From NCBI GenBank assembly GCA_947425085.1, contig CANDYV010000001.1, positions 11,253 through 75,252 of the forward strand: a stretch of DNA of 64,000 bases, written 5' to 3'. The notes below the pieces were generated by a model that searched no databases, was not told where the DNA came from, and saw only the letters and a program-made list of their open reading frames with translations. The position numbers and the translations under genes are program-made. Source of the stretch: an uncultured Candidatus Saccharibacteria bacterium. Lineage in GTDB: Bacteria > Patescibacteriota > Saccharimonadia > Saccharimonadales > Saccharimonadaceae. Positions 4,577-55,375 of this stretch are shown in pieces (the stretch's first letter is position 1; each line of letters opens with the position of its first letter).

Positions 4577-5994
4577 TGACAAAATACATTCCCACTATCG
4601 GCATCGAATGCCACGTCCAACTTTGCACTAAAACCAAACTCTTCTCCGAAGTCGACAACGACGCTCGTTTGAAGGAACCGAACTCTTGCGTTTCGCCGGT
4701 CGACTACGGTCTGCCCGGCATGTTACCGCGCCTAAATCAAGACGCGATTACTTACGCCGTGCGCGCTGGCCTCGCCCTAAACTCCGAGATTAACCTCGAA
4801 TCGCGCTTCGACCGCAAACACTATTTCTATCCTGACCTCCCGAAGGGTTATCAGATTACTCAGATGTACCATCCGATTATTGGCGCCGGCTTTGTCGAGC
4901 TTCCAGATGGCACCAAGATCCGCATCGAACATGCTCATCTCGAAGAAGACGCCGGAAAACTGAGCCACGAATCGACTTATAGCCTCGTCGACCTGAACCG
5001 TGCCGGCACGCCTCTCATCGAAATCGTCTCCATGCCCGATATCCACTCCGCTGCCCACGCTCGCGACTATACGAAAGAACTTTGGCGCTTGATGACTTAT
5101 GCAAAAGTCACTTTTGGCGATTTGTACAATGGCAACATGCGTTTCGATGTTAATATTTCGCTTGCGCCTGAAGGTAGCGAAAAACTTGGCACTCGCGCCG
5201 AAGTCAAGAACCTGAACTCTTTCCGCAGTGTCGAGCGCGCCGTTGAATATGAAATCAAGCGCCAGACTAAGTTGCTTGAAAAAGGCGAAAAAGTCATCCA
5301 GGAAACTCGTGGTTGGAGCGACGCCACCGGCGAGACTACCTCTCAGCGCAGTAAGGAAGAAGCTCAAGATTATCGCTATATGCCGGAGCCAGACATCCCA
5401 CCAATTCGCCTCGCGCCTGAAGTTATTGAAGCGGAGCGCGCGCGCTTGCCGAAACTTCCTGCCGAATATCGTCATGATTTCAGCAAGGTTCTCACTGCGG
5501 ACTTGATCGAAGTTTTGCTCGACTATCAGAACTTAGTTGAGAAACTCGCCGAGCTCGAAGATGAAAAAACTGCTAAGAAGGTTGCCAACTTGTTCTCGTC
5601 GGTACTGTTGGCCGAAGAAAACGCTAGCCTCCTGAACGACGAGCTCCCGACCAAAGAACAACTTCTTGAACTTGTCGAGATGAATGACAAAAATGAACTT
5701 TCCAGCACCGCGACTAAGGAAGTTTTTCTGAAGTTCTTCGACCCGGAAATGCATTTCAAAGATACCCGCTCGATCGCGAAAGAACTCGGCGTCATTCAAG
5801 AAAACGACATGGGCGCGCTCGAAGCAATTGTCGACGCTGTGCTTGCTAAGCCTGAAACCAAACAGGCCCAAGACGATTATAAAGCTGGTCAGGAAAAAGT
5901 CCTCGGCTTCCTTGTCGGTCAAGTGATGAAAGAATCTCACGGCAAGGCTAACCCGAGCGCCGTTCAAGAAATCCTGAAAGCCAAGCTTAAATAA
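4576..5994 (+). CDS. gatB: Asp/Glu-tRNA amidotransferase subunit B
   Basis: IGIECHVQL, FDRKHYFYPDLPKGYQITQ, HLEEDAGK, DLNRAGTPLIEIVS, DYRYMPEPD. Confidence 0.97.
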   Translation: MTKYIPTIGIECHVQLCTKTKLFSEVDNDARLKEPNSCVSPVDYGLPGMLPRLNQDAITYAVRAGLALNSEINLESRFDRKHYFYPDLPKGYQITQMYHPIIGAGFVELPDGTKIRIEHAHLEEDAGKLSHESTYSLVDLNRAGTPLIEIVSMPDIHSAAHARDYTKELWRLMTYAKVTFGDLYNGNMRFDVNISLAPEGSEKLGTRAEVKNLNSFRSVERAVEYEIKRQTKLLEKGEKVIQETRGWSDATGETTSQRSKEEAQDYRYMPEPDIPPIRLAPEVIEAERARLPKLPAEYRHDFSKVLTADLIEVLLDYQNLVEKLAELEDEKTAKKVANLFSSVLLAEENASLLNDELPTKEQLLELVEMNDKNELSSTATKEVFLKFFDPEMHFKDTRSIAKELGVIQENDMGALEAIVDAVLAKPETKQAQDDYKAGQEKVLGFLVGQVMKESHGKANPSAVQEILKAKLK

Positions 5995-7778
5995 TGCCGC
6001 CAGTCCCGACGGAGCTCGAAGCCTTCCGGGACTGGTTTGCGGAGCACTTTTCACTCTACGACAAACCTTATACGCTCGACCTCGACCAGGCTCGCGCCGT
6101 GCTCGACGGGCATAAGAATACCCTTATCACTGCTCGCGCTGGCTCTGGGAAAACCCGCGTCATCGTCGCGAAGATCGCCTATCTCCTCGCAACAGGCCAG
6201 GCCACCCAAGCCGAAATCGTCGCCTTCATGTTTAATCGCACCGCTGCGCAGGAAGTCAACGAACGCATCGCCGAAGTCAAGTTCGACGGACAACCGATCA
6301 TCAAACATGCCAGCACAGGGCAAACCTCGACCACCGGCCAACATCCCGCAAAAATCGCTTCAACTTTTCATAAGTTTGCCCTTGACATTGTTAAACTTTC
6401 TGGTGCTCGCCCGGAACTTATCTCCGAAATTGAACATGAGGAGCTAATCCGTCGCAGTTTGGATCAGGCTCTCAAATCCTTAGAACCGAAGCGTCATGTC
6501 TCAAAGCGTGACTTCGATGAACTTTTGAAAACTATCTCCGGCTTTGTTGCGCGCGCCGGGCAAAAGTATATTGGTCAAACTGGCCTCGCGGAACTTCAGA
6601 AAAATGTCGAAGATTATGCCTCGCAGCATTTCGACGATCCTAGCTTCGTCGAAAAAGTCCGCCTTCACCAACTCGGCTCCGCCACCTTCAAAAACTATCT
6701 TCAAAACCTTCGTCCGTCCAAAACCGATTTTAATCTCCTCATGTCTCGCGCCGCCGAAGTATTACATGGTTGCGACTTGAAAACAGGGACTGGCGAACTT
6801 CCGCATGACTACGCCACGGCAGCATCCCGCATTCTCCGGAAAGTTCGCCCGCTGAAGTTTATTATGATTGACGAATATCAAGACTTTTCGCAACTTTTCC
6901 TGAACCTCGTGCTGTCTCTGCGAGAAAACTGTCCTTCGGCGCACCTTTTCGCGGTCGGTGACGATTGGCAAGCGATTAACCGCTTCGCCGGTTCCGACGT
7001 CGATTATTTTATTCACTTCGCCGACTATTTTTCGGAAGATGTCATAAACATTCCGCTCATGACTAACTATCGCAGCTGCCGACGCATCGTCGAGAATGCC
7101 AACGACTATATGCTGGGAAACTACGACCCGACCGCCAGCCGCGCTGTCCCTTTCAACCATAAACCCGGCAAAATTATTCGCCGAAATCCAGATAAAACTC
7201 GTTTCGATGCCGACGACATCCGCGAAGACGCCCTCGGCGACGCTCGCTACCAACTCGCTCTCGCTCGTGCTATCGATACTTATAAAACGCCCCTTAACCA
7301 TCAGCCCAAAAGCACGGCACCCTCTACCGACCGCATCAAAGCCGCCAATATCTCCGCCGATGTCGCCAAACTCCTAAAAACCGTTTTCAAAATCCTCCAT
7401 AAGAATCGTCATTCGGAAATCATGCTCCTCCATCGCCATAATTTCACGACTTTCTCAAATATTACGCTCGAAACTTTTTACGCCGCGCTTAAAATCCTCA
7501 CCATCGAAGAGGGAATTATGACGTCAGAAAACTTCGACCAACAAGTCCGCTGCCTGACCATGCACAAGTCGAAAGGGCTCGAATCGGAGGTTGTCATTTT
7601 GCTTGAAGCGAACCGCGACCTCGTTCTCGGCCAACATTCGAACGCCGACCTCTGGCAGCTTTTCGGCGACAACTTCGTAACCGAAAAATCCGACCAGCAT
7701 CGCCTCCTCTATGTCGCCATGACCCGTGCCAAGCAAAAACTCTACATCTTGAGCACCGACAAAAAATTTGCGCTCTGA
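5994..7778 (+). CDS. UvrD/Rep-family SF1 helicase (helicase IV-like)
   Basis: Walker A ARAGSGKT, TFHKF, IDEYQD, VGDDWQAINRFAGS, NYRS, TMHKSKGLE, LLYVAMTRAK. Confidence 0.9.
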   Translation: MPPVPTELEAFRDWFAEHFSLYDKPYTLDLDQARAVLDGHKNTLITARAGSGKTRVIVAKIAYLLATGQATQAEIVAFMFNRTAAQEVNERIAEVKFDGQPIIKHASTGQTSTTGQHPAKIASTFHKFALDIVKLSGARPELISEIEHEELIRRSLDQALKSLEPKRHVSKRDFDELLKTISGFVARAGQKYIGQTGLAELQKNVEDYASQHFDDPSFVEKVRLHQLGSATFKNYLQNLRPSKTDFNLLMSRAAEVLHGCDLKTGTGELPHDYATAASRILRKVRPLKFIMIDEYQDFSQLFLNLVLSLRENCPSAHLFAVGDDWQAINRFAGSDVDYFIHFADYFSEDVINIPLMTNYRSCRRIVENANDYMLGNYDPTASRAVPFNHKPGKIIRRNPDKTRFDADDIREDALGDARYQLALARAIDTYKTPLNHQPKSTAPSTDRIKAANISADVAKLLKTVFKILHKNRHSEIMLLHRHNFTTFSNITLETFYAALKILTIEEGIMTSENFDQQVRCLTMHKSKGLESEVVILLEANRDLVLGQHSNADLWQLFGDNFVTEKSDQHRLLYVAMTRAKQKLYILSTDKKFAL

Positions 7779-13125: not shown

Positions 13126-13908
13126 ATGTCGACTAAGATTTATATCATCGAAGACGAACCAGTCATGCGCCAAAGTCTCGCCGACCTTCTCGCGGGCTCC
13201 GGCTATGAAACCGACGCTCTAGTTTTTGAAGAGCGATCTACACCCCGCGAACTTGATCAACCTACACTTCATAACCCTGAGCAGTCTGCGCCCCGCGAGC
13301 TTGAACGGTCTGCGCCTTTTGATCTCGAGACTATCGTCGAACAAATCCTCGCGGCGAAGCCTGATTTGCTTCTGCTCGACATCAATCTCCCAGGCTTAAA
13401 CGGCGAACAACTCCTGAAAACCCTGCGCCAGACTTCCGAACTCCCCGTAATCATGGTGACGAGCAGCAGCTCCGAAATGGACGAAGTTCTCTCTATGAGT
13501 TATGGCGCCGATGATTACATCACGAAGCCTTATAGTCCGCAAGTTTTACTCCTCCGAATCGCCGCCGTCCTGAAGCGCGTCGAAGCCCCCAGCAGTATTA
13601 AAAACTTTCGCCACCTAAACATCGATCTTGCTCGCGGCGTGATTTCTGGAGAGAAAGACCCGAGAACTGGCAAGCCGCGTCGCGCCTTGCTTACGAAGAA
13701 TGAAATGATTATCTTGAGCCATCTCCTCGAAGCAAAAGGCGAAATTGTCACTCGCGACGCTCTCATGACCGACCTCTGGAACAACCAAGAATACATCAAC
13801 GACAACGCCCTGACCGTCAACACCAGCCGCCTTCGTTCGAAACTTAAATCTCTTGGCGCCGACGACGCTATTGAAACTCGCAAAGGCCTCGGCTATGTCC
13901 TCGCCTAA
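13126..13908 (+). CDS. OmpR-family response regulator (BceR/GraR-like)
   Basis: IEDE, LLDINLP, GADDYITKP, DNALTVNTSRLRSKL and TRKGLGY. Has a repeat insertion in the receiver domain. Confidence 0.92.
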   Translation: MSTKIYIIEDEPVMRQSLADLLAGSGYETDALVFEERSTPRELDQPTLHNPEQSAPRELERSAPFDLETIVEQILAAKPDLLLLDINLPGLNGEQLLKTLRQTSELPVIMVTSSSSEMDEVLSMSYGADDYITKPYSPQVLLLRIAAVLKRVEAPSSIKNFRHLNIDLARGVISGEKDPRTGKPRRALLTKNEMIILSHLLEAKGEIVTRDALMTDLWNNQEYINDNALTVNTSRLRSKLKSLGADDAIETRKGLGYVLA

Positions 13909-15082
13909 CCCGACCGCCGACCGCCGCGACAACCCCGCCAATCTCCGCCACTTTCTCCGCGAGAAGCTCTATTACTTTATACTTTTCTTCGTCCTTCTAG
14001 CCTGCCTACTACTTTTTCTGCTCGCCCTCCATGCCCGCGCCGAAATCATTATCATTACCGTAATCTTCTTCGCGCTTTTTGGCATCACTGTCCCGGTTTC
14101 CGAATATCTCCGCCGCCGCACCTTTTATCAAAAACTCCTCCAAAACATTGCCAGCCTCGACCGCGCCTACCTCGTCCTCGAGACCCTTGCTAGGCCGAAC
14201 TTCTATGACGGCGCCGTCCTCTACGAAGCGCTCTACGCTATCAACAAATCCATGGCCGAAGTCGTTCAGAGCTATGAAATCGAAGCCGACGAGTTTCGTG
14301 ACTATATCGAAATGTGGATTCACGAAGTTAAAACTCCCCTCGCCACTTTGAGTCTCATGAATAAAGATCGCAAAATTGCCGCCCAGCTTAGTCGTCTTGA
14401 CAGTTACGTCGAACAAGTTCTCTATTTCGCTCGCGCCGAAAACGCCGAGCACGATTATCTCATTAAGTCGACTTCGCTCGCCGAAATTATCAAAAATGTC
14501 GCCACTCGTAACCGTGACCTTCTCCTCGCCAGTAACGTCGACTTTGCCGTGAGCAACCTGGACCATGAAGTTTTTACCGATAGCAAATGGCTTGAGTTTA
14601 TCATCAACCAGATCCTTCAAAATAGCGTTAAATACCAGAGCAAAACTATTACCATTTCCGCCAAAGACACCGCAGAAAGAACTGTCCTCACGATTACCGA
14701 TGATGGTCTTGGCATTTCCGCGAAAGATCTCCCGCGCGTCTTCGAAAAATCCTTCACCGGCGAGAACGGCCACGGTACTACATCTGCCGCGAACAGTCGA
14801 ATCAGCCGCAACTCATTGCCAAGTAGCGGCCAAAAGTCGACTGGTATGGGTCTCTATATCGCGAAAACCCTCTGCGACAAGCTCGGTCACCAAATCGAAA
14901 TCTCCTCACCAAACCAAAAGGGCACCATCGTCGAAATCACTTTTCCGCGCCACGATTACTATACTATCATGCGCCCAGAAACCCCCGGAAACCCAGAGAA
15001 GTCCGCCCGTTCAGAAAACCATACTCCACCCAGCAAAAATCATACTCCGGCACCGCCAAATCATACTCTTTCAAAAAAGTAA
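13895..15082 (+). CDS. Intramembrane-sensing histidine kinase (BceS/GraS-like)
   Basis: Start re-called at ATG 13895. Two closely spaced TMs, WIHEVKTP H-box, DSKWLEFIINQILQNSVKY and STGMGLY. Confidence 0.92.
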   Translation: MSSPNPTADRRDNPANLRHFLREKLYYFILFFVLLACLLLFLLALHARAEIIIITVIFFALFGITVPVSEYLRRRTFYQKLLQNIASLDRAYLVLETLARPNFYDGAVLYEALYAINKSMAEVVQSYEIEADEFRDYIEMWIHEVKTPLATLSLMNKDRKIAAQLSRLDSYVEQVLYFARAENAEHDYLIKSTSLAEIIKNVATRNRDLLLASNVDFAVSNLDHEVFTDSKWLEFIINQILQNSVKYQSKTITISAKDTAERTVLTITDDGLGISAKDLPRVFEKSFTGENGHGTTSAANSRISRNSLPSSGQKSTGMGLYIAKTLCDKLGHQIEISSPNQKGTIVEITFPRHDYYTIMRPETPGNPEKSARSENHTPPSKNHTPAPPNHTLSKK

Positions 15083-31822: not shown

Positions 31823-31854
31823 GGGCGGCCCCATAACGGCCGCCCAATTTTCTT
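31823..31854 (+). terminator. Terminator-like hairpin closing the orphan unit
   Basis: Stem gggcggcc/ggccgccc followed by aattttctt. Confidence 0.65.
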
Positions 31855-31928: not shown

Positions 31929-32160
31929 TGCTATAATAAAAACGTTCAATCTTGTTAACATATGTCAACTATTTTTAGTGACGTTGTCATTTTTACCTTT
32001 TGCGATTATCGCGTGTCGGAAACGGCACCGCAGCAATGCACACGATGGTCCGAAAGGTTCAAAGTTGACGCGTTGACAGGATTGAACACCCCTGCGGTGT
32101 CGTTTTTGTTTTAGGGCATGGACGGCCGCTGAGGTTATCAAACCTAAAAGGAGGGCTGTG
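31929..32160 (+). promoter_or_regulatory. Extended -10 promoter plus structured 5' leader (candidate cis-regulatory RNA), copy 1
   Basis: TGcTATAAT at 31929-31937. 31944-31970 pairs with 32063-32087 and 32020-32033 pairs with 32092-32105, followed by a U-rich tract and SD aggagg. Confidence 0.65.
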
Positions 32161-33216
32161 ATGCTAAAATACCAAAGAAACTTTAATGCTGTTGGAGGAA
32201 TAAGCTGCTTTTGCTTACTTTTGCTAGAACTTTTTCTAATCAACCCACTCGCAAGTTCGCCAGCTAGCGCCATTGAAGAAGCCGGCCAAGCTGATTCTGG
32301 GCAGTCCTTCGTAAGTTCTTCCGTCAAGATCGAATTTCTACCGGTCGCCTCTCCTAGCCCGATTACCCCGACCACGCCTGAAGGCGTGTCCGCGCAGGCA
32401 ACGGTTCGCTCTAACATCGGAATCAAAAATTCCGGCGGCTATAGCATTTATCTAGGCGGTTCCGGCGAGCTTGTCGGTCAAAAGACCGGTGCAACAATTT
32501 CCGGCACGCCCAACCCCTCAACTCTCGAAGATCTCCCAGCAAACACTTGGGGCTATGCCGTCACTACGGAAGAAAGCCTCCCATCAGATACAACCTATAA
32601 AGCGTTATCGGCTGGCCAAGGCGACCTCTTGGCCAGTCAGAACACTCCAGTTCGCGAAACCAACCATACTTTCACACTTGGCTTCGCAACGAAAATTGGC
32701 GTAGATCGCCCGGCCGACACCTACGAAGGAAAGTTTGTGCTTTCGGTTATCTCCTCGCCGCGCGAGCTCGTCGCGCTCAGTGATTTGGATACTTTGCAAC
32801 AAATGACGAGTAAAATCTGCGAAAATACAGCGCCGGGCACCGAGGTCGAACTTATCGATGAGCGCGACGGTCAAATCTACCCCGTCACCAAATTTGCCAA
32901 GGATAATAACTGTTGGATAACTCGGAACCTAGACTATGCGCTAGATCCAGGCGCTCCATTGACGAGCGAACTTTCCGATGTCTCGACGACATGGACGCCG
33001 CCGGCTACTGTGCTAACCGGCTCGCCGTCCAACTTTAATAATAGCAGCAATGATCTCGTTGCCTCATATCGAAGCGCCGACAATGCCACTTACGGTACGT
33101 ATTATTCCTGGGGCGCCGCAACCGCCTTTATCGTGCCGTTTGACCCTGGCGTAATCTGGCCGTCGGGTGTCACCAGCCGCTTTAACGGCTGCTCCGTTCG
33201 CTGCATCGCGCGATAA
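32161..33216 (+). CDS. Secreted FISUMP (Fib_succ_major)-domain surface protein, copy 1, with internally shortened C-terminal domain
   Basis: Signal-like N-terminus, NTWGY beta-domain, LQQMT..IC, DERDG..Y, CWITRNLDY, YYSWGAATA and SVRCIAR. Alternative GTG start at 32158. Confidence 0.82.
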   Translation: MLKYQRNFNAVGGISCFCLLLLELFLINPLASSPASAIEEAGQADSGQSFVSSSVKIEFLPVASPSPITPTTPEGVSAQATVRSNIGIKNSGGYSIYLGGSGELVGQKTGATISGTPNPSTLEDLPANTWGYAVTTEESLPSDTTYKALSAGQGDLLASQNTPVRETNHTFTLGFATKIGVDRPADTYEGKFVLSVISSPRELVALSDLDTLQQMTSKICENTAPGTEVELIDERDGQIYPVTKFAKDNNCWITRNLDYALDPGAPLTSELSDVSTTWTPPATVLTGSPSNFNNSSNDLVASYRSADNATYGTYYSWGAATAFIVPFDPGVIWPSGVTSRFNGCSVRCIAR

Positions 33217-33296
33217 AACTCTACAACGGTTGTAGAGTTTGGAGATTGACTAACAGGGGTGGAGAAAAATAAAAGTCTACAATGGTGATAGAGTTT
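33216..33296. repeat. Perfect 25-bp palindrome and a degenerate second copy
   Basis: aaactctacaac-g-gttgtagagttt (33216-33240) and aaagtctacaatggtgatagagttt (33272-33296); 21/25 identical, 31 bp apart. Confidence 0.75.
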
Positions 33297-33322
33297 GAGG
33301 GTTTCTGGAATTTCTAGGTTTT

Positions 33323-33497
33323 CTCCGCCCCAGCCTCCGCAACCGCCAAAATAAGTCAACCTGCCCGCGAATTATAACGCAGGAAACGATATAGCACATA
33401 CTTATTCCTTTTTTACAATAAAATCGATATCGAAGAGCTTATAAATCTACCCAACAGATTTATTAACTTATTTGGCGGGGCGGCGACTGGGGCGGAG
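33323..33497. repeat. Inverted-repeat-bounded element with conserved core, copy 1
   Basis: Imperfect ~35-37 bp terminal IRs (ctccgccccag.../...ctggggcggag). Core 33387-33432 matches the reverse complement of 51667-51711 except for one indel. Confidence 0.8.
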
Positions 33498-39225: not shown

Positions 39226-40464
39226 ATGCGTTTTAGTAAACTTTTCACCAAGACCCTCCGCACCGCCCCGAAAGACGAAGCGGCTCGCGGCGCCCAATTT
39301 CTTTTGCGCGCTGGATATATTCATAAAGAACTCGCCGGCATCTACGATTACTTGCCGCTCGGCCTTCGCGTGCTCGAAAACATCAAAAAAATCATCCGCG
39401 AAGAGCTGAACGAAATCGGCTGCCAAGAAGTCCTCATGTCCAGTCTTCAAAATCCTGAGCCATGGCAAAAAACCGATCGCTGGGATATTGAAAAAATGGA
39501 CATCTGGTTCCGCACTCAACTCGCTGCCGGAGGCGAACTCGGTCTCGCCCCGACCCACGAAGAGCCGATGACGAACATGCTGAAGTCCTATGTCTCTAGC
39601 TATAAAGACTTGCCGATTTATGTCTATCAATTCCAGACTAAGTTCCGCAACGAGCTCCGCGCCAAATCCGGCATTATGCGCACCCGCGAATTCTTAATGA
39701 AGGATCTTTATAGTTATTCGACCGATGAAGAATCGCACGATAAGTTTTATCACGAAGCCGAAAAAGCCTATAAACGCATTTATGATCGCCTCGGCATTGG
39801 TGGCGACACCTTCCAAACTTTTGCGAGCGGCGGCGTCTTCTCGAAATACAGCCATGAGTTCCAGACTATCACCGAAGTCGGCGAAGATACAATTTATTTC
39901 AACGAAGATAAGTCCGTTGTCCTGAACGAAGAAGTTTTGAATGATGAAGTTCTCCAGGACCTCGGCGTCAAACGCGAGGAGCTAAAATCCGCCCGCGCCG
40001 CTGAAGTCGGCAACATCTTCACCCTCCGCGAAAAGTATTCCGCTCCGCTCGATCTTGCCTTCAATGACAAAGGTGGTAGTCGCAAAACCGTTTTCATGGG
40101 CTGCTATGGTATCGGCGTCTCCCGCGTCATGGGCGTCATCGCTGAAAAACTTGCCGACGACAAAGGCCTGGTCTGGCCGGAAAACATTGCTCCTTACAAA
40201 TATTATCTCGTCAATATCGGCGACGAAGGCACGAAACTTGCCGAGAAACTCTACAAAGATCACGAAGAGGATACGCTCTATGACGACCGCGACCTCCGTC
40301 CTGGCGAAAAATTCGCCGACGCCGAGCTCCTCGGCATTCCGTATCGCATCGTCGTCTCCGACCGCAATCTAGAAAAGGGAATTATCGAAGTCACGAACCG
40401 CGCTACGGGCGAAACTCGCGAACTTCCTGCCAAAGATTTCTCGCTTAGCGACCTTCACTTCTAA
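39226..40464 (+). CDS. proS: Proline--tRNA ligase (short form, no INS editing domain)
   Basis: Start re-called at ATG 39226 (MRFSKLF). LAPTHEE, KFRNELR, REFLMKDLYS and MGCYGIGVSR; 412 aa. Confidence 0.95.
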   Translation: MRFSKLFTKTLRTAPKDEAARGAQFLLRAGYIHKELAGIYDYLPLGLRVLENIKKIIREELNEIGCQEVLMSSLQNPEPWQKTDRWDIEKMDIWFRTQLAAGGELGLAPTHEEPMTNMLKSYVSSYKDLPIYVYQFQTKFRNELRAKSGIMRTREFLMKDLYSYSTDEESHDKFYHEAEKAYKRIYDRLGIGGDTFQTFASGGVFSKYSHEFQTITEVGEDTIYFNEDKSVVLNEEVLNDEVLQDLGVKREELKSARAAEVGNIFTLREKYSAPLDLAFNDKGGSRKTVFMGCYGIGVSRVMGVIAEKLADDKGLVWPENIAPYKYYLVNIGDEGTKLAEKLYKDHEEDTLYDDRDLRPGEKFADAELLGIPYRIVVSDRNLEKGIIEVTNRATGETRELPAKDFSLSDLHF

Positions 40465-53566: not shown

Positions 53567-53809
53567 CATAAATCCAAACCGCAAGCAAAATCCACAAAAA
53601 TCTAAAATCATCGTGGCTATGTTTGTATCTCAAAACCAAAATATGGTATAATGCCCAGTTTTCTAGCCAAAAACCAAAACACAAAAATCTCCCTAAAATC
53701 TTCGTGCTTATGCTTGCTAATCAAAAAAGATTTGCTATATACTAAACCCACGGGCAAAAGTAGGTCTTGATCTAAGCACGCTTAACAAGGGAGAAAGGAG
53801 GATAGGGTT

Positions 53810-53896
53810 ATGGTAATACGATTTTCAATCAAACGTATGAAAGTTTGGATCAATTTACTCCAAATAAAGATTACTTTCGTTAAGAAACGAAAGTAA
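53810..53896 (+). CDS. Candidate cationic small peptide / type I toxin (28 aa), not in the ORF track
   Basis: SD aggagg 8 nt upstream; MVIRFSIKRMKVWINLLQIKITFVKKRK*; own promoter at ~53714-53743. Confidence 0.5.
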   Translation: MVIRFSIKRMKVWINLLQIKITFVKKRK

Positions 53897-53911
53897 TCAA
53901 ACAACCTTAAT
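53862..53911 (-). ncRNA. Candidate ~50-nt antisense sRNA
   Basis: Minus-strand TTGATT-17-TAGAAT (53946-53918, TG-extended). A 13-bp perfect hairpin at 53869-53898 is followed by UUUAUUU on the - strand. Confidence 0.45.
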
Positions 53912-54016
53912 AACTCCATTCTAGCATCAAACAATAGCAAAATCAAGACCAAACTTGCCCGACCCGAATCATCATAAACCATAACGAAACCATCAGCGGA
54001 GTGCTATAATAAACCT

Positions 54017-55375
54017 ATGGCTAAATCTCATTCTCAATTCGTCTGCCAGCAATGCGGTGCCATCTACACCAGTTGGAACGGCCGCTGTAGCAAATGCGGC
54101 GCCTGGAACTCCCTCATCGAACAAGTCCCCGAAGACGCGCGCGATGAAAAATCTGCTGTTTCTCGCGGTCAAGCCTCCGGCAAACTCTTGAAATACGCCT
54201 CGATTAACGACCTTGAAGTTTCGAACGAAAAAGAACGCCTGAAGACCGGCTTTCCCGACCTCGATACCGTTCTTGGCGGCGGCATTCTCCTCGGCTCTGT
54301 CTCGCTTCTCGCCGGCCAGCCCGGCATCGGCAAATCCACCCTCCTCATGCAAATCTGCGCCAAAATCGCCGAAACTCGCACCGTATTATATATCTCCGGC
54401 GAGGAATCTGCCGGCCAGGTCAAGCTTCGCGCCGTCCGCCTCGGCGCTAAGTCCGATAACTTGAAATTCGCCAGCAGCACCTCCGCCAACGACATCGCGA
54501 AGACCATCGAAGGCGGCGAATTCGACCTCGTCATCGTCGACTCGATCCAAACCCTCACCCTCGCTGAAATCGCCTCCGCGCCCGGCGGCATCTCCCAGGT
54601 CACGAACTGCGGTAATCTCATCATCCGCGCCGCGAAAACCTCCGGCACCGCCGTCATCATCGTCGGCCACGTCACCAAAGAAGGAACTTTAGCCGGTCCG
54701 AAAGTCCTCGAACATCTCGTCGATGTCGTCTTGAATTTTGAAGGCGATCGCTACGGCGGGTTCAAGACCGTCCGCGCCGTCAAAAACCGTTTCGGCTCGA
54801 CCACCGAAGCCGCCATTTTCGAAATGAATCAACAAGGCCTCTCCGAAGTCAAAAACCCTTCCGCCGCCCTCCTCGCCGAGCGCCAAAACACCGACGGTTC
54901 AATCATCCTCGCTACCCTCGAAGGCACTCGCCCCATCCTCGTCGAAATCCAAGCCCTTGTCACCCCTTCAAACTTCGGCTATCCGAAGCGCACCGCTTCC
55001 GGCTGCGATCTGAACCGCCTTAATCTTCTCATCGCCGTCCTCGAGCGCCGCACGAAGCTCAAACTCTCTGACCAAGACATCTTCGTCAACGTCGTTGGCG
55101 GTCTGAAGCTCCAAGATTCCGCTGCCGACCTCGCTATCTGCCTTGCCATCGCCAGCGCCGTCGCCGGCCGCAAGCTCTCCGAAGAATACGTCGTGTTCGG
55201 TGAAGTCGGTCTCGGCGGCGAGATTCGCTCCGCCTTCCGTCCCGATCAACGCATCTCCGAAGCGAAGAAACTCGGCTTCACCCGCGCCATTGCCCCTGCC
55301 ACGATTAAAGACAAGTTCGTCATCCCCGTCCGTGACCTCCGCGACACGCTAATTAAATACGTCAACGAGAAATAA
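54017..55375 (+). CDS. radA: DNA repair protein RadA/Sms
   Basis: C4 zinc finger, GQPGIGKST, KNRFG and a Lon-like C-terminus (GEVGLGGEIR). Confidence 0.96.
   Translation: MAKSHSQFVCQQCGAIYTSWNGRCSKCGAWNSLIEQVPEDARDEKSAVSRGQASGKLLKYASINDLEVSNEKERLKTGFPDLDTVLGGGILLGSVSLLAGQPGIGKSTLLMQICAKIAETRTVLYISGEESAGQVKLRAVRLGAKSDNLKFASSTSANDIAKTIEGGEFDLVIVDSIQTLTLAEIASAPGGISQVTNCGNLIIRAAKTSGTAVIIVGHVTKEGTLAGPKVLEHLVDVVLNFEGDRYGGFKTVRAVKNRFGSTTEAAIFEMNQQGLSEVKNPSAALLAERQNTDGSIILATLEGTRPILVEIQALVTPSNFGYPKRTASGCDLNRLNLLIAVLERRTKLKLSDQDIFVNVVGGLKLQDSAADLAICLAIASAVAGRKLSEEYVVFGEVGLGGEIRSAFRPDQRISEAKKLGFTRAIAPATIKDKFVIPVRDLRDTLIKYVNEK

Follow-up and report, generated by a model that had tools for sequence, protein, structure and literature searches.

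A dispersed family of candidate-adhesin cassettes with a strongly covarying leader RNA and a structured 3' element in a mouse-gut Saccharibacteria genome

Attenuation leaders and riboswitches (T-box, PyrR-type) combine a long leader, a GC-rich helix followed by a U-run, and exclusive pairings that share one strand, with conserved islands in loops and one leader ahead of many genes of a regulon. The vlp and vsp systems of Mycoplasma hold many surface-protein paralogues with a conserved upstream region and signal peptide, divergent bodies, and recombination, and some 3' untranslated regions (UTRs) act on their own mRNA, either by pairing with the ribosome site (the icaR 3' UTR of Staphylococcus aureus) or as stabilisers of the repetitive extragenic palindrome (REP) type. 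Among the targets of diversity-generating retroelements (DGRs), FISUMP/DUF1566 is a recognised domain class (PMC5758913). Here, we report a repeated gene cassette that resembles each of these systems in part, found twice in a window of 64,000 nt from an uncultured Candidatus Saccharibacteria bacterium (GenBank assembly GCA_947425085.1, contig CANDYV010000001.1, positions 11,253 to 75,252). The best-supported part of the finding is a new, strongly covarying leader RNA common to a regulon of candidate adhesins.

Each cassette consists of a promoter, a leader of 215-260 nt, an 18-mer holding the ribosome site and start, a gene for a secreted protein of ~500 amino acids, and a 3' element of 145-310 nt. 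The genome (G000; a 717-kb draft in 45 contigs, ~75% complete, whose contigs are given C-numbers below) holds at least 16 cassettes, dispersed singly. A first-pass annotation of the window had described two loci; a search of the contigs gave 16 sites for the core or arms of the 3' element and 16 for the leader, so that the number is in fact ~16 per genome. Wherever a contig is long enough, leader, ~1.5-kb gene, and element follow one another on a single strand; 11 cassettes are complete, and 5 leader-only and 5 element-only pieces lie at contig ends. The genome has 14 perfect copies of the start 18-mer and another with a single mismatch. The four-part layout recognised in the first pass is therefore a true repeated module, dispersed at ~16 loci.

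The same module occurs in related metagenome-assembled genomes (MAGs), all from mouse-gut Saccharibacteria. The sister genome MGBC115424 (G029) has 16 start words with matching elements, and MGBC118057 and the more divergent SRR16350202_bin.8 carry full cassettes. When a 16-mer of the ribosome site and start was searched across the family, only G000 had it in multiple copies; this search under-reports the leader because the start region differs in distant lineages. The recurrence of the cassette parts is far beyond chance, and the two loci of the window probably belong to a lineage-specific family of ~16-17 autonomous transcription units. The core of the 3' element and the Shine-Dalgarno/start region are ~100% identical, against 50-56% amino-acid identity in the coding interior, which agrees with the earlier remark that noncoding parts and gene ends are the better conserved. 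The features of the two window copies, every one of which lies where it had first been placed, are given below in window coordinates (P1, T, and P5 are leader helices).

31929-31937, + strand: extended -10 promoter of copy 1, TGCTATAAT, a box common to ~29 cassettes, of predicted activity
~31944-32157, + strand: leader RNA of copy 1, ~214 nt, in which P1 and T covary
31944-31959 and 32072-32087, + strand: 5' and 3' strands of P1, copy 1
32021-32033 and 32092-32112, + strand: 5' strand of T, and 3' strand of T plus U-run, copy 1
32146-32163, + strand: ribosome-site/start 18-mer of copy 1, AAAAGGAGGGCTGTGATG, with a GTG/ATG double start
32158-33216, + strand: coding sequence (CDS) of copy 1, 352 amino acids, with signal peptide, pilin-like beta-sandwich, and a FISUMP domain with large internal deletions
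33197-33216, + strand: gene end 20-mer of copy 1, like an initiation of mutagenic homology (IMH) site
33323-33497, + strand: 3' element of copy 1, with left arm at 33323-33356 and right arm at 33465-33497
33387-33432 and 33445-33459, + strand: core stem-loop, and small hairpin with ACCCAAC loop, inside the copy 1 element
53566-53558, - strand: extended -10 promoter of copy 2, TGGTATAAT
53551-53324, - strand: leader RNA of copy 2, ~229 nt
53551-53537 and 53409-53397, - strand: 5' and 3' strands of P1, copy 2
53470-53456 and 53395-53375, - strand: 5' strand of T, and 3' strand of T plus U-run, copy 2
53351-53344, - strand: 3' strand of P5, copy 2
53335-53318, - strand: ribosome-site/start 18-mer of copy 2, with one C/T difference from copy 1
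53323-51824, - strand: CDS of copy 2, 499 amino acids from the family-consistent GTG, with signal peptide, pilin-like beta-sandwich (residues ~66-217), and full FISUMP domain (residues 243-498)
51803-51587, - strand: 3' element of copy 2, with left arm at 51803-51774, core stem-loop at 51711-51667, and right arm at 51615-51587

Pairwise alignment of the two copies reproduced the identities first reported for the Shine-Dalgarno/start region (17 of 18) and the gene end (19 of 20), and the 37-bp conserved stretch is identical over 36-37 nt with one indel beside it; outside these islands, the copies are only ~50-65% alike. A T-run lies directly past the right arm of the copy 2 element. Copy 1 is atypical and internally deleted (352 amino acids against ~500 in the family, and a leader without P5), and most of its lectin domain is gone. 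The main deletion is also present in its orthologues from two sister MAGs (432 and 437 amino acids), which means that the shortened form has persisted for a while. A strong terminator-like hairpin, rich in GC and with a T-run (window 31823-31845), lies shortly before the copy 1 promoter and ends a 650-nt stretch that lies behind a helicase gene and has no convincing open reading frame (ORF).

A TGnTA(T/C)AAT box stands 200-240 nt upstream of the start codon in ~29 cassettes and is a putative extended -10 promoter; P1 begins 6-7 nt downstream of it. In an alignment of 24 leaders, P1 (15 bp) joins the first transcribed nucleotides to the segment before a conserved ACACCC, and the long-range helix T (11-12 bp) pairs an apical segment with the segment right after P1, with a U-run of 4-6 behind T in all leaders. 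For P1, helix P2, and T together, 93.9% of alignment cells are paired, against 72.3% in shuffled leaders and 30-44% when the 3' partners were slid. Taken singly, P1 has 98.8% of its cells paired and T 96.6%; changes on both sides affect 12 of the 15 P1 pairs and 5 of the 11 T pairs (in T, for example, GGCACCGCAG/CTGCGGTGTC, GACGCCGTAAGG/CCTTGCGGCGTC, and GGCACCACAG/CTGTGGTGTC). These compensatory changes bear out the common pairing architecture that had been noticed in the two window leaders, and the leader is a real structured RNA.

In a further helix, P5, the end of the P1 3' strand together with CACCC pairs with a complement of 9-12 nt. Of 29 leaders, 22 have this complement, at a distance of 0-9 nt ahead of the ribosome site, and it changes in step with P1; the P1 3' strand has two exclusive partners, the leader 5' end or P5. 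Pseudoknot-free folding gave a single long hairpin per leader, made up of P1, P2, and P3 and starting at nucleotide 1-3, at -47 to -73 kcal/mol; for copy 1, the nested minimum-energy fold is one such hairpin from the predicted transcription start (-63 kcal/mol).

At gathering thresholds, neither the leader nor the 3' element had a match in Rfam 15 in the window, and a permissive mode returned only far-sub-threshold matches to long-hairpin microRNA models. The literature searched held no description of cassette, leader, or element, in keeping with the earlier statement that none was known. In other Saccharibacteria MAGs, which have no 3' element, the leader architecture also stands ahead of family members with identities of just 31-44%, and there T has again changed on both strands (e.g., GGCGCCATGAGG/CCTCGTGGTGCC). 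A covariance model built from 27 leaders matched 15 places in G000 and, outside its training set, sites upstream of distant family genes at 26-48 bits (loci L129, L119, L143, L118, L133, L140, and L136). Of 120 other sampled genomes of the family, 2 gave a single match each, a lower bound because only part of the candidates was scored. The 3' element was found only in four closely related MAGs, and the leader is older and more widely distributed than the rest of the cassette.

Two properties of the leader give it the logic of an attenuator, namely, the strand shared by P1 and P5 and a terminator-like helix that needs a strand buried in the apex. We infer that T and its U-run would act as an intrinsic terminator and that the fold of the leader would set access to the T 5' strand, as would a shared trans-acting factor (a protein or small ligand). 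One signal would then gate all paralogues, and P5 would lock the read-through form. The leader shares with attenuation leaders and riboswitches all the features named at the outset. Unlike them, it holds the terminator 5' strand in the apex of a ~40-bp hairpin, its terminator helix crosses P1, it has no Rfam match, and surface lectin paralogues, not metabolic genes, form its regulon.

The 3' element runs from the left arm through a variable spacer (often a hairpin), the core stem-loop, and a small hairpin (loop ACCCAAC) to the right arm. The arms form a GC-rich closing stem of 27-35 bp, and the core is a short CGATAT/ATATCG stem around an almost invariant 31-nt loop. The distance from the family gene to the element is 13-125 nt, and in most cassettes the stop codon is followed by the element after 13-28 nt. 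Related loci gave 34 full and 4 truncated matches and G000 gave 15, and every one of them shares the strand of a family gene that ends just ahead of it. A search of the genome and related MAGs for the core and arms thus upheld the proposed tie to FISUMP genes, as the element occurs only next to family genes and has the same orientation relative to the gene in 49 of the 49 elements examined.

The small 3' hairpin covaries in five of its five pairs, and in SRR16350202_bin.8, the inner half of both closing-stem arms has changed together. A canonical terminator stands behind the element in several cassettes and would place the element inside the (predicted) transcription unit. Mismatches that are G-U on the sense strand number 80, against 40 on the antisense strand, and this 2:1 excess lends weak support to a role as sense RNA. 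The element most likely acts in the sense transcript, where it would contribute to stability, 3'-end formation, or a binding platform. In this, it would be like the icaR and REP-type 3' UTRs, as a structured 3' region conserved with its gene, and its core UUCCUUUU is complementary to the ribosome site AAAAGGAG. Unlike in the icaR type, pairing of the core with the leader is no better in energy than that of shuffled cores, and transcription of the element is predicted. Pairing of the core with leader or ribosome site was rejected on this ground (mean duplex energy of -18.3 kcal/mol, the same as for shuffled cores). A small ORF inside the element was rejected, its frames not being conserved between copies. 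An antisense promoter or inverton in the core was rejected as the main reading, since no copy has an intact -10-like word and the orientation is constant.

Several observations weigh against this account of leader and element. A generic promoter scanner calls none of the cassette promoters, because no -35 is present. T crosses P1 and would form a pseudoknot, and the nested hairpin (-47 to -73 kcal/mol) is far stabler than T alone; a short local hairpin, ACACC/GGTGT, could also act as a weak terminator. The closing stem of the element is 97% paired and varies mostly on one side only. The sense G-U excess could equally stem from transcription-linked C-to-T mutation, a DNA-level role of the element is possible, and no partner for its near-invariant 31-nt core was found, the leader pairing no better than with shuffled cores. 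The start site, a stop at the U-run, and the inclusion of the element in the transcript are all predictions from sequence. We put attenuation forward as a plausible mechanism and leave the 3' element without an assigned function.

Full-length members of the protein family have 491-522 amino acids and are 48-56% identical to copy 2, and all members have an N-terminal signal peptide. TIGR02145 matches 8 of 8 members (copy 2 at 55.1 bits against a cut-off of 41.65, over profile positions 1-175 of 176; copy 1 at an E value of ≤0.01 and with no Pfam match), and PF09603 matches 7 of 8 (copy 2 marginally, at 34.3 bits against 33.9). The full-length AlphaFold model was poor for the lectin domain (mean predicted local distance difference test [pLDDT] score of 50, shallow alignment), and the N-terminal domain alone was used. 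It was modeled as a beta-sandwich (residues ~66-217; pLDDT, 75-93), and the folds closest to it were those of pilin and adhesin domains (e.g., CfaE; Z score, 7.6); at this score, the pilin likeness is a fold resemblance only. Saccharibacteria are obligate epibionts, and these proteins, with their C-type-lectin-like FISUMP domain, are candidate adhesins of a mouse-gut epibiont.

Two genes in G000, full-length in all other respects, are broken by single in-frame stops (L023, C1:81507-83020, and L028, C12:8700-10155). One stop is a TGA at a conserved Trp codon that is TGG in both sister-genome orthologues, and the other is a TAA; the two genes are recent pseudogenes, assembly errors, or population variants. 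Homologues with 39% identity over the full length and both domains occur in gut Firmicutes (L105, L109, and L111; Pararuminococcus, Intestinimonas, and Eubacteriales); horizontal transfer between these bacteria and Saccharibacteria may lie behind them. The covariance model and a comparison of loci found no leader or 3' element at these homologues.

G000 encodes one DGR-type reverse transcriptase (RT), a 559-amino-acid ORF with an RVT_1 match and the motifs IGNLTSQ and YVDDF, preceded by an accessory ORF of 209 amino acids. Eight noncoding, AAC-rich, template-like units of ~200 nt share sequence with the variable region of a family gene beside the RT. These features have the following positions in G000.

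C31:2807-5115: RT and accessory gene
C31:~5650-7324: family gene beside the RT, divergent, its 3' end leaving the contig inside the variable region
C1:83603-83802: template-like unit
C1:~81004-81206: template-like unit
C6:7390-7592: template-like unit
C16:9198-9401: template-like unit
C20:318-520: template-like unit
C32:6159-6361: template-like unit
C36:431-633: template-like unit
C40:3010-3212: template-like unit

Every unit carries an extended -10 promoter of its own, and its conserved 5' RNA domain contains GGAGATCG, which is able to pair with CGATCTCC at the unit end. The units differ from one another preferentially, not exclusively, at adenines, with the C36 unit nearest to their consensus, and several directly flank cassettes. 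Eight template-like units for one RT is unusual. The conserved end of the cassette genes is the TCCGTTCGCTGC end common to these units and looks to be a remnant of a DGR target site; the family would descend from, and still overlap with, DGR targets, and this descent would account for the conserved gene end. The first-pass reading, right about the repeated module, had taken in neither this ancestry nor the wider distribution of the leader.

Like DGR targets of the CLec2/DUF1566/Fib_succ_major class (Legionella LdtA type; PMC5758913), the family has a C-terminal lectin fold and a variable-region-like gene end, RT and template-like repeats are present in the same genome, and the RT-adjacent paralogue on C31 is 81% identical to a template-like unit with A-biased mismatches. 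Unlike such targets, the window copies fail the comparison of template and variable regions and are invariant across samples, and descriptions of DGRs include neither a 5' leader nor an inverted-repeat-bounded element of 150-300 nt. The window genes were rejected as current DGR targets on their mismatch spectrum, with many non-adenine mismatches: the best identity to a template-like unit is 60% for copy 1 and 62% for copy 2, with 24-38 mismatches at C positions. Copy 2 shows 0-1 differences over 1.63 kb among contigs of three studies, from which low-level variation would drop out.

One might instead take the 3' element for a cruciform by which a DGR recognises its targets at the DNA level, and the cassettes for a bank of current targets, with lectin tips that would be rewritten from the template-like RNA units. 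The RT and accessory gene do adjoin a family gene with a variable region, the eight promoter-bearing units lie in part beside cassettes, FISUMP is a known target class, and the usual position of the element, 13-28 nt after the stop codon, is where DGR targets carry inverted repeats; two cassette-type genes of MGBC118057 even have both a template-like 3' end and the element. We nevertheless consider this unlikely. The 3' ends of the window genes and other G000 cassettes are 51-68% identical to the units with mostly non-A mismatches, the CDS of copy 2 is not hypervariable across the three studies, and the orphan template-like units, variable at A sites, have no such element. The target hairpins of the Bordetella phage system have a 4-nt loop, unlike the arms of the cassette element, which stand 100-250 bp apart.

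The favoured account, of adhesin cassettes with DGR ancestry, also has to be set beside the behaviour of the loci over time. Cassettes have one-to-one, syntenic orthologues in G029 that are 92-97% identical including the flanks. In copy 2, the CDS is 97.5% and the flank 92.3% identical to the G029 orthologue, and the leader interior only 67.7%, having been swapped in that orthologue with both T strands replaced together. The cassettes on C17 and C15 are 93% identical in the 5' CDS, 66% in the 3' CDS, and 94% in the 3' element, and copy 1 and cassette C4b (element at C4:37962-38141) are 93% identical in the element and 69% in the leader. This module mosaicism points to recombination among paralogues on an evolutionary time scale, in which paralogues would swap modules by homologous recombination. 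As the loci are stable, we do not read the system as a programmed switch. The early suggestion of switching or exchange thus survives for exchange, by the mosaicism, and fails for programmed switching, inversion, and mobility, given the syntenic orthologues and the lack of any inverted copy.

The cassettes resemble the Mycoplasma vlp and vsp systems in belonging to a reduced-genome, host-attached bacterium and in their conserved upstream part, divergent bodies, and recombining members. They differ in being dispersed rather than clustered, in that the upstream part is a folded RNA, and in the additional conserved 3' element; no homopolymer tract or invertible site was found in them.

Assembled metagenome contigs from four independent studies, in which rare variants are lost, were used for comparison. 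These break at the 3' core and at the start 18-mer, and in four metagenome runs, contig word depth relative to the local level was 10-13× over the core and ~4-5× over the 18-mer; depth over the core is raised because the sequence is multicopy. Joints listed at 90% likeness in the contigs were short-sided and came from paralogues, and are uninformative on inversion or expression. Four or five same-genus genomes yielded no empty site, and none could be defined because the RadA and L31 neighbours differ from those in G000, ClpP lying upstream of RadA and the helicase not beside L31. In a comparison of window positions 53600-54017 with four same-genus genomes (L150 to L153), ClpP lies directly upstream of RadA in those genomes, and here a cassette is on that side. 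The cassettes may mark rearrangement breakpoints. Genes for tRNAs lie directly upstream of two cassette promoters and one template-like unit (C4:~39950-40105, C15:~13870-13960, and C20:~700-800), and the 64-kb window has no tRNA or tmRNA.

Mobility or site-specific recombination of the cassette, or of its 3' element, is quite improbable, whether as an attC-like site, a miniature inverted-repeat transposable element (MITE), or an invertible promoter switch that would set single adhesin genes on or off. Such a unit would fit the inverted arms of 27-35 bp around an interior of 100-250 bp, the place of the element at the ORF 3' end, as for attC sites, and the reverse strand of the core, which resembles the TGnTATAAT promoters of the genome. 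The tRNA genes beside some cassettes, the mosaic modules, a gene order around copy 2 unlike that of more distant relatives, and two encoded tyrosine recombinases could be read in the same way. The tyrosine recombinases, however, are on other contigs, and no resolvase or invertase was found in the 75%-complete draft. The promoter-like word is TGCTATATC in every copy, without the final T of all promoters seen. No copy of the element lies away from a family gene, and the 49 elements, the sister genomes with their syntenic orthologous loci, and the contigs of the four studies gave no sign that an element had been inverted or transposed; those contigs (assembled contigs only) contained no clean junction of an inverted or excised form. 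An inverton is disfavoured by the single orientation of all 49 elements; a MITE or transposon remnant was rejected because every copy follows a family gene and the element flanks have no consistent direct repeat. An integron cassette with attC was rejected because the cassettes are single and dispersed, with their own promoter and leader, and form no array beside an integrase.

More ambitiously, the leader could be a new class of ligand- or protein-sensing RNA switch controlling an entire set of lectin adhesins in Saccharibacteria, joined with pairing of the element to ribosome sites and renewal of the lectin tips by the DGR and its promoter-driven template-like RNAs into one integrated system for varying attachment specificity. 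Base pairing between the pyrimidine-rich loop and ribosome sites, on the same mRNA or on those of other family members, would in such a system leave one or few paralogues expressed. We hold this to be improbable. Strongly disfavoured is an old gene duplication family without function, with flanks alike only through gene conversion: it would suit the leader interior swapped between orthologues and the incongruent nearest neighbours of the modules, but conversion alone gives neither the compensatory changes in P1, P2, T, P5, and the small 3' hairpin nor short islands (18-mer, 31-nt core, T strands) near 100% identity within sequence of ~65%, nor a leader kept ahead of 31-44% identical homologues in other Saccharibacteria lineages.

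The best explanation overall, and in our judgment the probable one, is a family of adhesin cassettes with an attenuator leader, a sense-acting 3' element, and DGR ancestry. Some 4-5% of a reduced genome is devoted to one family of lectin-type surface proteins, forming a defined regulon of candidate adhesins tied to a DGR. To our knowledge, type IV pili apart, little has been learned of how Saccharibacteria select host cells and stay attached to them. The repeated units point to a shared control system for candidate adhesins that has not been described before, and the leader, which has >60 examples in several lineages and is a candidate for a new RNA family, is a concrete, testable regulatory element. 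If it answers a host-derived signal, it would offer a direct handle on the control of attachment in the candidate phyla radiation.

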